Assembly (NCBI GenBank): GCA_964447495.1
Contig: CAYUTF010000022.1
Span: 1 to 40,566, forward strand
DNA: 40,566 nt
Reading direction: 5' to 3'
Origin: an uncultured archaeon
GTDB taxonomy: Archaea > Asgardarchaeota > Lokiarchaeia > Sigyniarchaeales > SOKP01
Shown here piece after piece: positions 1 to 5,922 of the stretch. The number at the start of each line of letters is the position of its first letter. Positions within the stretch are counted from its first letter, which is position 1. The translations under genes and the position numbers were made by a program. The notes under the pieces were generated by a model. The model saw only the letters and a program-made list of their open reading frames with translations, did not search any database and was not told the origin of the DNA.

Positions 1-2452
1 TCGGTCGAATACGCTTAGAATTTCTTTTATTTATGGGTAAACCATATATTTCACAGAAACCTGTTATTTTTCTCATTCCTAATAAACCTTTCACAAATGT
101 AGATTTACCTGCCCCACTCTCTCCCAAGATTCCTAATATCTCTCCATGTTTTATATTCATGGAAACAGTATCAACAATTAGTTTACTACCAGCAAACACG
201 CTTAAATTCTCGCAATTAATCGCTGGAAAATTCTGAAGATACGAAGGGGAAAGCTTACTTCCTATTCCCAACCTAAGTCTTATTCTCTGAGGTATTGAAA
301 GCCTTTGATAAAGTTTATATAAAATAAATAATACAAGACATCCTGCTTCAATATATAGAATATAGGTAAGAAGCTGATTCCAAGGTTTAAAATCAAACGA
401 TTGTTCATATCGTAATTCTTCCACAATAATAATACCATAGGGAGTATTTCTTAAATCACCACCGAATCCCGGGTTATCTCCAATTCCCCCCGTACTTAGA
501 CTAATACATTCTTTAAACCACAATAATGCTTCTTGAATATTTTCAGGTTGATAGCGATAATCATATAATGCTTTTGATGCTAGATATGAGAAAAGGAAAG
601 TAGAAGGTAACTCAAGATACATACTTATTACGGGTAATAAAGCAAAGCTTCCATCATCACTTTGACTGTTTTTTAAAAATTCAATTGCTGCAATTTTTGA
701 AATAGGTTCTGTATTGAATATTTCATTAAAGATTTCCAGACCATAATAAGTTGAAATGACGTCACTGTAAAAACCAACAACAATAGAAAATCCACCATCT
801 GCATTTTGACAGGTTCTTAGCCAATGGGTTAGATTATTGTTATTAATATAGTCAATAGATTCTAGATTTTTTAGAGAAATTAGTGCCCAATAAGTAGATT
901 CAATTGTCGAAACATTCGTATTTACTAAGTTTAGAAAAACACCATAATATGGTCCAAAAAGAGATAGAAGATAATCTAAATCGTTTCCAACTCGAAAGCC
1001 TCCATCGTCATTTTGAAGACTAATTAGAAATCGAGACAGATCAATAATTTGAGAAGGTGAAAACCACTTTTCAGATAAGGGAAAAAGCATACGATAGAGA
1101 TTGATTGCGCAATAAGTTGAGAAAAGAGTAGCATTCAATCCTGGCTGAGATCCATAACCTCCTTCGTATGAATTATAGCATAAATCTACAAATTTTAAAA
1201 TATTATCTCTTTGGATTTTTTGAGTAAACCCTTCTAAATTATACTCATTTAATCCTAATATACCAAAATAATTAGATTCAATCGTAATTTCACCAAATAA
1301 TGAATTAATTGCCTGAAATTGATGAGTCCAATTATAGTAGTTGGATCGATAGAAGTTAAAATTGAATGGTACTGTAGGAAAGGTTTTTTCTAGAATATCT
1401 AATGATTTCATAGCAGCCCATCCTGAATTAATATCGGATTCAATGTTTATATCTGGCGTTAATCCAAAACCACCATCAGGGCTGCTACAGTTTGCAATGA
1501 AATTTAAAGTATTTGTTTCATTAAAAAGGGGCAGGATTGGAAGGTTTAGAATGTCAATTGAAGCTAATGAATAATAGGTAGAAAGAATATCAGAGGTTTG
1601 CCCAAGGGCAGATGAAAATCCGCCATCCAAATTATAAAGTGAATTAAAATAAGTCCCCAATGCTAATTTATCAAAAATAGAATAACTCATGTTCATACTT
1701 AAGAAAGCTTGAATACCAAAATATGTAGTTTCCGCGGTTTGAACAAAAGAATTATTTGTTAAAAAATAGCCACTGCCAGACCAAGTTGAATTTATGAAAT
1801 TAGAGATATTAGTATTAAGTAGAATATTACCTAATCGTAATTGATATGCAGTATTAATTGCACTGAAGGTTGAGACAATATCTGAGGCGTTTAATAAGGG
1901 AATCGCTTTAAAACCCCACCCTCCACCATTTAATACGGTTAATAAATATTCAATGATCTTCTGAGTTTCATTATGAGCAATTTTCTCTTCAAGATATGTC
2001 TTGTTAGCCAAAAAAATTGTCGATATTGCTTGATAAGTAGATTCTGTATTTCCTAACCCTCCTATGTCTGAATAAGACCCTTCAGAATTTTGTTTCTCAA
2101 ATATGTAGTCAAAAAAAAACCAAGGATTTGCCATTTTTATTTGCACTTCCTTTAAGTAACTTGGGTTTATAATATCTGGAGAGATGATTTCTGCTAAGGA
2201 AAAATTTATTGAATCTATTACCCTAAAATTTGTTTCGATACTGGGTTCAACAAAAAGACCTAAGTCATTTTGGTGAGTTTTGGTGAATTTAACAGCATTT
2301 AATTTAACAAATTCTACGTCTTTCTCACTAATATACGAGATAAACCTAGTATTAACCAAAATGAGAGTGATAATAGGTGTTCCTATTAAAAGGAAAAATA
2401 TTAGCGCATATTTTAATCGATGTTTACTTTTCCTATTTAATTTTATTATTTT
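1..2452 (-). CDS. Membrane-anchored prenyltransferase/squalene-oxidase-repeat (alpha-alpha barrel) protein fused to a C-terminal ABC ATPase domain; 3' end runs off the window
   Basis: Not in the ORF track because it has no stop in the window. I translated it by hand and it is open from 2452 to 2. It has an N-terminal hydrophobic segment (YALIFFLLIGTPIITLILV), repeated Q/CxxDGGF-type motifs (QNSEGSY, YNLDGGF, CSSPDGGFG, QNDDGGF, CQNADGGF, SQSDDGSF), a TM helix (LLTYILYIEAGCLVLLFLY) and then Walker A GESGAGKST at about 98-124. Start codon uncertain. Confidence 0.85.
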
Positions 2453-3502
2453 TCAACACCTTCATTAGATATGAGTTCTTTTCTTTCTTCTTCTTGAATT
2501 CTAATCTGGAAAAATCTTCTAAAACTTGCTAAGTCTCTACTCATAGAATTTACGTTAATCCCCTTTTCTAGCATAAACTGTATTAATTTGGGTAAATTTT
2601 CCTCAAACGACTCCATTAGCACTTCTATTACTTCATTCCCTACTCTTAATACTTTTTTTATTGATGAGAATTCTTTTATTTGGTCAATTTTTGCTTCATT
2701 TAATTTGGTTATTTCAAATCTGGCTACCAATCCTTCACTCGGTAAGGAATTTATTAAATTTTGCGGTGAATCAAATTCTAACATACGGCCTTCCCTCAAA
2801 ATCGCCGTTTTATCACAGATTAAAGCCGCCTCTAAATCGTGAGTGATAATAAACATGGTGGTATTTAGTTTTTGATTCAATTTTTTTAAATAACTTAGAA
2901 TATCATATCTCTTAGACGCATCCACGCCTAAAACTCTATCAGTTTAAATAACTTAATAGTGTAGTCGGCTCGTCTAAGAATAGTACACTTGGTTTATGTA
3001 TAAGTCCAATTGCCATAGATAATCGCTTCTTTTCTCCTCCACTCATGTGCTTTACTTTTTTATTCCAAACATCTTCGGGAATATCTAATATTTTAAACAA
3101 CTCTATAGCTATCTCTCTAGCCTCCTCCTTTGATAAGCCATAGGTAGATGTGAAGACTTCTACGTTAACTAATGGACTGAGATCAAAGTATAAGTTTAAT
3201 AATTCGAGCTGGGGGACGTATCCGATATTGCTTAGTATTCTTGGATGGTTTTTTTTATTAGCAGGTGATAAACCAGTTACTTTTACATCACCATTCCAAT
3301 TTTTCTTTTCTATTTGGCATGTAAGAACACGAACAATTGTAGTTTTACCCGCTCCAGAAATGCCAAACAAGCCAATAATCTCCCCTTCATTCACCGTAAA
3401 TGAAACATTATGTACTATATGATTTTTATCAAATTTAACATTTAAATTGTTTACTTCTACCATTGGTTTATTTAATTTAACACTTTTGTTCATTAGCGCC
3501 AT
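2446..3502 (-). CDS. ABC-2-type exporter ATP-binding protein, 341 aa after removal of a 31-nt intron; join(complement 3502..2961, 2929..2446)
   Basis: ORF 2939-3502 has Walker A GISGAGKTT, signature MSGGEKKR and Walker B LFLDEPTT, then diverges into LLSYLN*. ORF 2446-2925 continues VDASKRYDIL...FIITHD (H-loop). Removing 2930-2960 gives the continuous consensus FLDEPTTGVDAS. Confidence 0.88.
2930..2960 (-). other. Predicted 31-nt BHB (tRNA-endonuclease-type) intron in an mRNA
   Basis: Pre-mRNA: GCC|GACU|AC^A|CUAUU-A-AGUU-AUUUA-AACU-GAUAG|AGUU|UU^A|GGC. It has a 4-bp central helix GACU:AGUU, two 3-nt bulges (ACA, UUA), an exon stem GCC:GGC, and a 9-bp exon-exon inverted repeat (2910-2918 / 2971-2979). 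Confidence 0.85.
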
Positions 3503-3793: not shown

Positions 3794-4591
3794 TTATTTT
3801 ACTTCCATTGTATTAAAAGATCTTGCTCCCAATAAAATAAGAATTGTCCCAAAAGCACCTACAATTAAAAAATCTAACCAAATTGGGAAAAAAGAGGCTC
3901 CTACTAATACCGCTCTGAAAAGATCTACACTATAAGTAAAAGGATTGAACATCGCGACTATACCTAAAGGTCCGCTTATAACATAAAACGCCCCTGATAC
4001 CAAAAACATAGGCATGACGATAAATGTTTGTATTAAACCAAAGGATTGAAAATCTCTCATTCGAGTGCTAATTGTAAGGCCCAATCCTACAATACCTATG
4101 CTTGCTAATAATGCTACTGGAAGAATCAAAATAATTTTCAATATTAAGATAAGATTATATCCAAAATATCCGAAAATCACGCCCAATATGACAATAATAA
4201 ATACTTGTATTAATGTTTGTAAAGCAACGCCTAAAGTTTTTCCCAACATTAATGTTCGTCTGCTGACTGGAGCAACAATTAATTCTTTCATAAATCCAAA
4301 CATCTTATCTCTCATTACTCCCATACCACCAAAAATTCCGGTAAACAGAATAACTATAGCAGCTATTCCTGAAGCGGCATAAGCTCTAGGATCAACAGAT
4401 ACTCCATTTATGAGTACTGATGAACTTGATGTTTGAAGAGCGGAGCTAAAGACAAACAAAAAGAGTATGCCTTGAACTATTGATGAAATTAATCTAGTCT
4501 TATTCCGCCAAAATTCATAAATTTCTCTTCGAGCTAATATCCATATGGCCTCAAAATTCAAACCAGTTTTTATAACATTCAAATCTGACAT
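3794..4591 (-). CDS. ABC-2 transporter permease (DrrB-like)
   Basis: Six hydrophobic segments, with RDKMFGFMKELIVAPVSR, PMFLVSGAF and NPFTYSVD motifs typical of ABC-2 permeases. Adjacent to an ATPase. Confidence 0.9.
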   Translation of the reverse strand: MSDLNVIKTGLNFEAIWILARREIYEFWRNKTRLISSIVQGILFLFVFSSALQTSSSSVLINGVSVDPRAYAASGIAAIVILFTGIFGGMGVMRDKMFGFMKELIVAPVSRRTLMLGKTLGVALQTLIQVFIIVILGVIFGYFGYNLILILKIILILPVALLASIGIVGLGLTISTRMRDFQSFGLIQTFIVMPMFLVSGAFYVISGPLGIVAMFNPFTYSVDLFRAVLVGASFFPIWLDFLIVGAFGTILILLGARSFNTMEVK

Positions 4592-4596
4592 TTATA

Positions 4597-5922
4597 TCAC
4601 TTCGTTAATTGCCTCATTTGTATACGGTTTTTTATATCTTTGGTAGTGTTGGAGGTTTCTTCTCTAATTTCAGATCCAACAAAATGTAAAAAAACATCTT
4701 CTAATTTTGGTTCATGGACATTCACAGTTTTTATTGTTAGATTACTTTCATCGACTTTTCTAATGACATCTGAAAGACATGTACCTCCATGTTCACACGA
4801 AATTGAGATTTCTGTTTCAGAATCCTTTTGATCCTCTGAAATTTCTCCTTTTTTAATTTTTATGATCTCTTGTTTAATTCCATCGGGTACTTGATCGAGC
4901 AGGTCGTCAGTAAAAAGATCAGCTATCCTCTTTTTTACCTCAAAAGGAGCATTTAGAAGCATTTGTGATGCCATTGGAAATCGCTTTAATGCAGTTAATA
5001 GCTTTTTCGGATCGGACATCATATCCCTCATTTGAGCCTTAATCATTTCAGGATTAATATTTGGCATATTTTTCGGAAGATTTAAATTCGTAAACATGGC
5101 ATCACTACTTGCCATTGAATGTCCAAATGAAATGTTCTTAATACTTGATAGTTCTCTAATTTGCGAAACAAAATCCATGATTTTCATTCTATCGTCAATA
5201 TTATCAAATTTTATGTCAATTATATCCCCAGAAATTTGTTTTTTAAGATTATCGGATGTATCTAAAGCAATAATTTTTCCATGATCCATAATACAAATCC
5301 TATCTGCTAATTCGTCTGCTTCTTCCATATAATGGGTCGTTATTAAAATTGTTATACCTAAATCACGATTCAATTCCCTAATTTTTTCCCATATCTTATG
5401 TCTGGTCTGAGGATCCAATCCTAAAGTTGGTTCATCAAGAAACAGCATTTTTGGCGATTGTAATAACCCCCGAGCTATTTCTAATCTTCTTTTCATTCCT
5501 CCGGAATAATTTTTTACAAATGTATCTGCTTTATCTTGTAAATCTACTAAATTAAGTACTTCATTAATCTTTTCTTTCCTTTGCGATTTTGGCATCTTAT
5601 ATAAAATAGCATGAAGTTCTAAATTTTCCTGCCCTTTCATTTCACCATCTAAGGATGGCTCTTGAAAAACAATCCCTATACTTTTTCGGACTTGACCAGG
5701 ATCTTTTTGAACATCAAATGAATTTATTGTTGCTGTTCCCTTTGTGGGATTTAAAATTGTGGATAATATAGAAATAGTAGTGGTTTTTCCCGCACCATTT
5801 GGTCCTAAAAGTGCAAAAATTTCACCTTTTCTTATTTCAAAACTAATATCATCAACAGCTAGAACATTACCTTGTTCATATATCTTAGTTAAGCCCTTTA
5901 CTTCAACTATATTTTCTGACAA
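4597..5922 (-). CDS. ABC-2 transporter ATP-binding protein (DrrA-like) with an approximately 100-aa Met/Pro-rich insertion in the C-terminal domain
   Basis: GPNGAGKTT, YSGGMKRRLE, LFLDEPTLGLDPQ, TTHYMEEAD and C-terminal PKLEDVFL. Confidence 0.93.
   Translation of the reverse strand: MSENIVEVKGLTKIYEQGNVLAVDDISFEIRKGEIFALLGPNGAGKTTTISILSTILNPTKGTATINSFDVQKDPGQVRKSIGIVFQEPSLDGEMKGQENLELHAILYKMPKSQRKEKINEVLNLVDLQDKADTFVKNYSGGMKRRLEIARGLLQSPKMLFLDEPTLGLDPQTRHKIWEKIRELNRDLGITILITTHYMEEADELADRICIMDHGKIIALDTSDNLKKQISGDIIDIKFDNIDDRMKIMDFVSQIRELSSIKNISFGHSMASSDAMFTNLNLPKNMPNINPEMIKAQMRDMMSDPKKLLTALKRFPMASQMLLNAPFEVKKRIADLFTDDLLDQVPDGIKQEIIKIKKGEISEDQKDSETEISISCEHGGTCLSDVIRKVDESNLTIKTVNVHEPKLEDVFLHFVGSEIREETSNTTKDIKNRIQMRQLTK

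Follow-up and report, generated by a model that had tools for sequence, protein, structure and literature searches.

The stretch analyzed here (hereafter the window) comprises 40,566 nucleotides (nt), positions 1 to 40,566 of contig CAYUTF010000022.1 (C22 in our numbering), and belongs to a 3.81-Mb, 98.4%-complete archaeal genome of Asgard (Promethearchaeia-/Lokiarchaeia-type) affiliation, which encodes eukaryote-like actin (four actin-family genes, the best scoring 442 bits to Pfam Actin). On the minus strand of the window, to which all features of the gene described below belong, an ATP-binding cassette (ABC) ATPase gene extends from 3502 to 2446 and is broken by an insert of 31 nt that separates Walker B (FLDEPTT) from the D-loop (GVDAS) and is very probably a bulge-helix-bulge (BHB) intron, given that the shape expected by the tRNA-splicing enzyme is exact and that relatives retain this shape through matching base changes. 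The open reading frame (ORF) starting at 3502 ends in translation with ...VLFLDEPTT, followed by LLSYLN and a TGA 19 nt inside the insert; a second frame begins at 2928 with GVDASKRYDILSYLKK and continues for 160 codons until a stop at 2446-2448. From the end of the Thr codon (2960) to the start of the Gly codon (2928) the gap is exactly 31 nt. Exon 1 (2961 to 3502; 542 nt), delimited by ORF, translation and Pfam, holds Walker A, signature and Walker B and ends with the AC of the junction Thr codon; exon 2 (2446 to 2929; 484 nt) holds the third base of that codon, the D-loop GVDAS, the H-loop region and the C-terminal domain. Together they make 1026 nt, or 341 codons plus a stop. FLDEPTT/GVDAS is the Walker B/D-loop junction of ABC ATPases. 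In exon 1, the Pfam ABC_tran match (3.3e-26) takes in the full profile (all 137 positions) and stops at the break, and 30 paralogous ORFs elsewhere in the genome align without a gap over the predicted join. An earlier reading of the sequence without database searches (the sequence-only reading) had described this insert at 2930-2960 with its frameshift and TGA, and had found the rest of the gene free of lesions; ORFs and translation bear out the former, and the latter agrees with the full-length, stop-free alignment of both halves with orthologues.

The shape tested for was hBHBh′, in which 4 exon nt 5′ of the 5′ bulge pair with 4 intron nt 5′ of the 3′ bulge, both bulges are 3 nt long and the flanking helices h and h′ each have at least 2 contiguous base pairs (definition from the Methods of preprint 10.64898/2026.10.13.758758). 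The layout at the junction (GCC:GGC, bulge UUA, GACU:AGUU, bulge ACA and an intron hairpin) agrees with this definition, and every helix and bulge of the strict BHB named in the sequence-only reading was located at 2969-2926. Helix h pairs GCC at 2967 to 2969 (the last base of the Glu codon and the CC of the Pro codon) with GGC, the Gly codon, at 2926 to 2928, and the central helix H pairs GACU of the exon at 2963 to 2966 (the third base of the Pro codon and the ACU Thr codon) with AGUU of the intron at 2932 to 2935. The 5′ bulge at 2960 to 2962, ACA in 17 of 17 alleles, contains the 5′ splice site (cut AC/A), and the 3′ bulge at 2929 to 2931, UUA here and variable among alleles, contains the 3′ splice site (cut UU/A). 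The intron hairpin h′ occupies 2936 to 2959 (stem 2959-2950 with 2944-2936, including one bulged base; loop 2949-2945). Presumably each cut follows the second base of the bulge. In this canonical register the intron is 2960 to 2930 (31 nt, with the frame-0 TGA at insert nt 19) and the junction codon becomes AC+A = ACA (Thr), so that the claim that no residue is gained or lost stands; any symmetric pair of cuts within both bulges takes out 31 nt. The chance of a strict BHB (h of 3, H of 4 and h′ of 3 pairs) at a fixed position and length is 1.05 × 10−4 in this genome (31% GC), and 1.8 × 10−5 with an h′ of at least 5 pairs. RNAfold gave a minimum free energy (MFE) of −19.6 kcal/mol (z = −2.88), a value reached by 2 of 200 shuffles.

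Orthologues (E ≤ 1e-35) were found in 71 of 154 genomes of the order. The open frame is short in 15 of these 71 and extends to at least 332 aa in the other 56, where many junctions were inspected directly and all of those inspected are contiguous. For G112 and G029, the short frame reflects only a contig end and the junction is contiguous, and in G094 the junction lies off the contig, leaving 70 assessable orthologues. At the identical codon boundary, 12 of the 70 carry an insert, spread over six genera of one family; in a first comparison of orthologous loci, it was missing at 18 of 20. Seven carriers have 31 nt (G000, G046, G047, G053, G018 and G042, all of the genus under study, plus G100), three have 32 nt (G080, G152 and G148), one has 33 nt (G075) and one has 34 nt (G084). 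When public metagenome contigs were scanned for the signature of the 31-nt form, seven matched, all in the same gene and at the same site; they contributed five new alleles and brought the alignment to 17 distinct alleles. The 3-4-3 geometry is present in all inserts of 31 to 34 nt, BHB excision gives back the frame and ...DEPTT-G... in every carrier at each of the four lengths, and none of the carrier genes has a second lesion. Helix H has 4 of 4 pairs in 15 of the 17 alleles and 3 of 4 in two; helix h has 3 of 3 pairs in 16 and 2 of 3 in one; and h′ adjoins the bulge with 2 to 10 contiguous pairs. Among the six alleles of the genus, all nine stem pairs of the intron hairpin are kept, with variation confined to the loop, the bulged base and U-G/U-A wobble pairs. 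The 32-nt introns of L106 (G152) and L108 (G148) are relaxed BHBs, with 3 of 4 pairs in H and a fold 6.5 kcal/mol above the MFE, and may be poorly spliced or decaying.

The core common to the 17 alleles (three pairs of h, four of H and the first two of h′) shows standard pairs in 150 of 153 cells, and in five of the nine pairs both sides have changed in a compensatory manner (20 cells). The covariation score was 0.446 against 0.191 in shuffles (a level reached by 0 of 500 shuffles), pairing fell to 8-56% when the 3′ partner was shifted by 1-3 columns, and the picture was unchanged with smaller allele sets. The third base of the Pro codon and the last base of the intron strand of H (columns 24-61) occur as GU in 7 alleles, AU in 5 and UA in 5; the third base of the first Thr codon and the first base of the intron strand of H (columns 27-58) as UA in 10, CG in 5 and UG in 2; and the third bases of the Glu and Gly codons, which form the outer pair of h, as AU in 8, GC in 5 and GU in 3, with one allele unpaired. 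Helix H falls into a first class, RACU:RGUU, and a second intron class with exon UACC and intron GGUA. All six carriers of the genus use CCR for Pro, ACT for the first Thr and ACA for the second, whereas its 17 intron-less orthologues use CCC/CCT/CCA, ACA/ACT/ACG and ACT/ACA/ACC, respectively, and in 8 of these 17 the outer pair of h is impossible. The 3′ bulge differs freely among alleles (UUA, UAA, UCA, AAU, UGA and AAA); its last base ends up as the third base of the junction codon, and AC+N always encodes Thr, making any base synonymous. The alignment with orthologues proposed in the sequence-only reading thus confirmed both intron presence, in a minority, and covariation of synonymous exon sites with intron bases. 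That reading also had a perfect 9-bp inverted repeat of the exons (2979-2971 with 2918-2910, within the span 2910 to 2979) clamping the structure. The repeat does exist in this allele and is part of its MFE fold, but it is allele-specific (67.5% of cells paired over 13 alleles, with 228 of 500 shuffles as high), and the clamp therefore lies outside the functional motif.

Support for the insert at the DNA level, which the sequence-only reading had named as a point on which its interpretation could fail, came from runs of three other samples: a contig of X2 (2763-3280) and one of X4 (2762-3072) each span the insert with 0 differences and 0 gaps, as do two overlapping contigs of X3. No intron-less joint was seen among the contigs of X2, X3 and X4. 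As three independent DNA runs carry it, the insert is not an assembly error. In X1, the likely source run, no contig piece covers the insert site. A second X1 contig (2515-2818) differs at 25 of 304 nt over exon 2, and a co-occurring related strain or species in that sample also carries the gene.

The genome encodes one RtcB (561 bits) and two EndA paralogues (PF01974 above cut-off at 104 and 69 bits), whose ORFs are 201 and 205 aa long. On visual inspection, the first EndA ORF has the Tyr/His/Lys pattern and the second is without the His. The EndA triad of Tyr, His and Lys is named in PMC12397907. Asgard EndA is described as an (alpha-beta)2 enzyme with an L1 loop linked to broad specificity (PMC5829648), and two full-length EndA paralogues are given for 44 of 60 Asgard genomes (preprint 10.64898/2026.10.13.758758). 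In its intron mode, ARAGORN predicted 56 tRNA genes, 15 with introns, several of them implausibly long (670 and 807 nt), and these predictions were therefore not used for calibrating the cut register. A search of this 98%-complete genome for a reverse transcriptase (PF00078) found none, a result that is uninformative on the lineages that lost the intron.

Taken together, same-site inserts, covariation, selection on both halves (below), the DNA runs and the presence of two EndA genes and one RtcB gene support the BHB intron originally proposed, and we consider it highly likely that this is a genuine hBHBh′ intron in the coding region of an Asgard ABC-transporter ATPase gene. In the pre-mRNA, codons for the invariant Glu-Pro-Thr-Thr ... 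Gly would provide the exon half of the motif, and the intron would provide the complementary strand of the 4-bp central helix plus the hairpin. An (alpha-beta)2 EndA would then cut symmetrically in the two 3-nt bulges, and RtcB would ligate the exons and probably circularize the 31-nt intron. The product would be an in-frame mRNA reading ...FLDEPTT-GVDAS... and encoding a 341-aa ATPase, whereas unspliced mRNA would yield only a truncated product of 187 aa. Cleavage and ligation in vivo, and the assignment of these steps to EndA and RtcB, are inferred.

Several points weigh against this interpretation. Folding of the RNA, suggested as a check in the sequence-only reading, recovered the outer helices and the hairpin in the MFE structure but not helix H, as the AC of the 5′ bulge is stacked instead on the GU of the H strand; RNAalifold on the six alleles of the genus also draws an alternative inner pairing in place of helix H. 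The BHB register lies 1.7 kcal/mol above the MFE in the reference allele; for 12 of the 17 alleles the BHB fold comes to within 0.3-2.9 kcal/mol of the MFE, but for the other five it is 4.1-7.9 kcal/mol higher than the MFE. Helix H contains a C.A mismatch in two alleles (G152 and G148), and the outer pair of h is missing in one (L041). The shuffle statistics are inflated because the structure was read from the same related sequences, and shuffle counts should not be taken as probabilities. Splicing itself is deduced from DNA (14 runs are listed, none of RNA), EndA and RtcB are the presumed enzymes acting on this mRNA, and coupled transcription and translation could compete with splicing. Nor do such introns appear to be common in the genome: in scans restricted to strict motifs, with intron lengths of 11-150 nt and 70 or more codons in each flanking ORF, frame-restoring BHBs were not in excess (712 with canonical cuts versus 725 and 641 in shifted-cut controls), and a test for paralogues spanning the junction returned 20 canonical cases versus 35 and 33 in controls.

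Stricter motif quality in the first of these scans likewise gave no excess over controls. The scan for ORF-fusing BHBs was dominated by AT-rich pseudo-motifs at gene boundaries, and recovered the ABC ATPase locus; matches of paralogues across junctions were mostly to repeat-domain proteins, and the ABC ATPase locus alone had many paralogues across its junction (30). One family of large repeat-domain proteins (G000 C9:55916-59416, with relatives on C24, C4, C5 and C25) accounted for most of the false matches. The lack of an excess in both scans marks the ATPase intron as an isolated case with no visible class in this genome. Among 26 ORFs of the genome with both Walker A and Walker B, one ends within 40 codons past Walker B, namely this gene. 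Further introns, as implied by the sequence-only reading, were not found: Pfam revealed no split domain among 10 closely spaced same-strand ORFs of the window. The window also contains no tRNA genes and no Rfam families at gathering score. The intron core has no second copy in the genome at up to 4 mismatches, and the intron pattern occurs once per genome in 6 of 42 genomes of the genus; a dispersed element was rejected on the grounds that it is single-copy.

Could translation proceed despite the insert? Ribosomes might cope with it by programmed frameshifting, stop readthrough or bypass, and a +1 shift is formally possible in a narrow window (insert nt 14-19) in four of the six genus alleles, with a stable hairpin in the insert as in bypass elements. 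However, inserts of 31, 32, 33 and 34 nt (3n+1, 3n+2, 3n and 3n+1) demand different shifts; all 10 alleles tested have a frame-0 stop within the insert, including the 33-nt form, which is in frame yet holds a stop; the final in-frame insert codon before exon 2 is a stop in G018 and G046; the variable last three insert bases leave no landing codon matching the take-off ACA; and frameshifting would add about 10 foreign residues between Walker B and D-loop. No single frameshift, readthrough or hop fits all carriers and BHB excision does, which indicates that the insert is removed as RNA. With no one consistent shift across lengths of 1, 2, 0 and 1 modulo 3, a programmed frameshift or bypass site was rejected, and we regard any ribosomal solution as exceedingly improbable. 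The same low standing applies to the view that the insert is a neutral scar in a gene that is dead in its carriers, i.e., a pseudogene. The unspliced frame does stop 19 nt into the insert and carriers are a minority (12 of 70), but both halves are open and the ratio of nonsynonymous to synonymous divergence (omega) among carriers, where synonymous divergence (dS) could be computed, ranges from 0.04 to 0.11 for the N half and from 0.06 to 0.18 for the C half, in carriers with saturated synonymous sites (most dS values between carriers are >1.5 or saturated). This purifying selection on both halves implies that lineages in which the insert has long been present translate exon 2 in its own frame, and a scar would hardly keep one site, one shape and covarying pairs over six genera with no second lesion in any carrier.

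Split genes are known in some archaea, and the two halves might be translated separately and assemble into one ATPase, for which the GTG present as the second codon of exon 2 in both this genome and G046 would offer a start. A start codon near the beginning of exon 2 is present in only these two of the six genus carriers, though; in the other four, exon 2 offers no start until 13-24 codons in, beyond the D-loop. The break would fall inside the catalytic core, between Walker B and D-loop, and the conservation and covariation of the BHB would be left unexplained, so that a split gene is hard to credit, if marginally less so than a scar. Somewhat less remote, though still improbable, is removal of the insert from RNA by a pathway other than EndA and RtcB, with another endonuclease acting on the hairpin or a different ligase. 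The role of EndA and RtcB here is predicted from their genes, and the hairpin is conserved beyond structural need. Against this, the conserved and covarying part is exactly the 3-4-3 BHB core, with exon-exon as well as exon-intron pairs, the bases of the 3′-side bulge vary freely, and the genome has two EndA genes and an RtcB gene; in the literature consulted, EndA is the enzyme described for every archaeal BHB substrate, including the cbf5 mRNA (PMC2738675, PMC7714728). Two further candidates were discarded. Membership of the cbf5 intron family, which is defined by a position at the catalytic-residue codon of the cbf5/dyskerin homologue, was rejected because the host gene here encodes an ABC ATPase and cbf5 is uninterrupted, the mechanism class being shared and the intron different. 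A self-splicing group I or group II intron was rejected for an insert of 31 nt in a window with no Rfam match at gathering score; such introns have a ribozyme core of hundreds of nt.

The history of the BHB intron appears to be complex. In a gene tree of 43 orthologues (a smaller tree of 24 rows was also built), the eight carriers require at least six gains or losses, forced by well-supported branches, and some pairs of carrier and non-carrier are very close, e.g., L085 to L084. Similar inner hairpins occur in the 31-, 32- and 33-nt forms, which suggests a single old intron that was precisely lost many times, a history also argued for cbf5 (PMC2738675). Between alleles with saturated synonymous sites, 2-6 of the 31 intron positions differ. 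The 30 nt of exon 1 adjoining the junction contain 10, 10, 11 and 7 mismatches in the otherwise very similar carrier/non-carrier pairs L033/L064, L033/L078, L050/L074 and L063/L066, respectively, whereas the remaining upstream windows mostly have 0-2 in the L033 pairs and up to 4-5 in the other pairs, and this cluster looks like a conversion tract travelling with the intron. For L005 (G018) and L027 (G047), a dS of 1.12 upstream of the intron and 0.14 downstream suggests a recombination breakpoint at or near the intron. These three observations hint that recombination also moves the intron, which we offer as a lead and not as a result. A more speculative scenario, which we consider unlikely as a whole, is that an old mRNA intron from the ancestor of the family has been kept as a splicing switch between the full ATPase and the 187-aa product (a counterpart of HAC1/XBP1) and that gene conversion moves it between lineages along with roughly 30 nt of exon 1. 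Such movement would explain near-identical introns in saturated alleles, the mismatch clusters at the junction and the six or more gains or losses.

Upstream of the intron-bearing gene and in the same orientation, 3794-5922 (minus strand) encodes a 441-aa DrrA-like ABC ATPase and a 265-aa ABC-2 permease, which makes the intron-bearing gene a second ATPase of an ABC-2 type transporter cluster. The downstream gene (2-2359, minus strand) contains alpha-alpha toroid repeats like those of prenyltransferases and terpene cyclases (PF00432, 3.3e-35) and then the first part of a further ABC ATPase domain, which the window edge cuts off; in relatives, the ORF at this position is about 1066 aa long. This fusion of toroid repeats and ABC ATPase is unusual, and belongs to the same operon as the split ATPase.

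Among known systems, the closest to the ATPase intron is the intron of cbf5 in Desulfurococcales and Sulfolobales (PMC2738675). Both are short, interrupt the catalytic core of a protein-coding gene, present a BHB or BHB-like substrate for EndA in lineages with hetero-oligomeric EndA, and are patchy in occurrence with lineage-specific absence (PMC2738675). They differ in host, which for cbf5 is a pseudouridine synthase of Crenarchaeota and here an ABC ATPase of Asgard archaea (cbf5 of this genome is one uninterrupted frame of 349 aa), and in that the ATPase intron, unlike that of cbf5, has a strict hBHBh′ motif and exon-intron covariation over 17 alleles of four lengths. Splicing of cbf5 was shown by experiment (PMC2738675), whereas for the ATPase intron it is predicted. 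Archaeal tRNA and rRNA BHB introns have geometry identical to that of the ATPase intron (3-nt bulge, 4 bp, 3-nt bulge, h and h′) and presumably the same enzymology, in which the EndA cut leaves a 2′,3′-cyclic phosphate (PMC12397907), and the difference is the host, here an mRNA. Asgard genomes are unusually rich in tRNA introns (PMC11291895; preprint 10.64898/2026.10.13.758758). In Haloferax volcanii, the HVO_1309 mRNA is cut by the splicing endonuclease at BHB sites, but its intron lies in the 5′ untranslated region (UTR) and leaves the reading frame unaffected, whereas the ATPase intron breaks the coding sequence (PMC7714728). Eukaryotic HAC1/XBP1 and the ATPase intron would share spliceosome-free removal of a short mRNA intron with a tRNA ligase (RtcB in animals) and an altered frame that determines which protein is produced; the endonuclease differs, being IRE1 on twin stem-loops for HAC1/XBP1 and presumably EndA on a BHB here, and regulation by stress, established for HAC1/XBP1, is purely speculative for the ATPase intron.

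Apart from the Haloferax 5′-UTR case, the crenarchaeal cbf5 intron was the only archaeal mRNA intron reported as of 2020 (PMC7714728). A full-text literature search turned up no BHB intron described for a protein-coding gene of Asgard archaea, and the texts consulted on Asgard tRNA introns (PMC11291895; preprint 10.64898/2026.10.13.758758) do not mention mRNA introns, the word mRNA being absent from the preprint; this negative pertains to the texts searched, and additional BHB substrates other than tRNAs might appear in the supplements of the preprint and of PMC7714728. The insert is very probably a canonical BHB intron in an mRNA, of a kind known so far from one gene family, and within the literature searched it is the first in Asgard archaea. 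Genes of this type get called as two fragments or as pseudogenes, which is a warning for annotation. A compact substrate of 31-34 nt with natural compensatory variants would allow the action of EndA and RtcB on mRNA to be studied, its patchy occurrence provides a system for intron gain and precise loss in prokaryotes, and its presence in an Asgard lineage bears on the ancestry of eukaryotic non-spliceosomal mRNA splicing.

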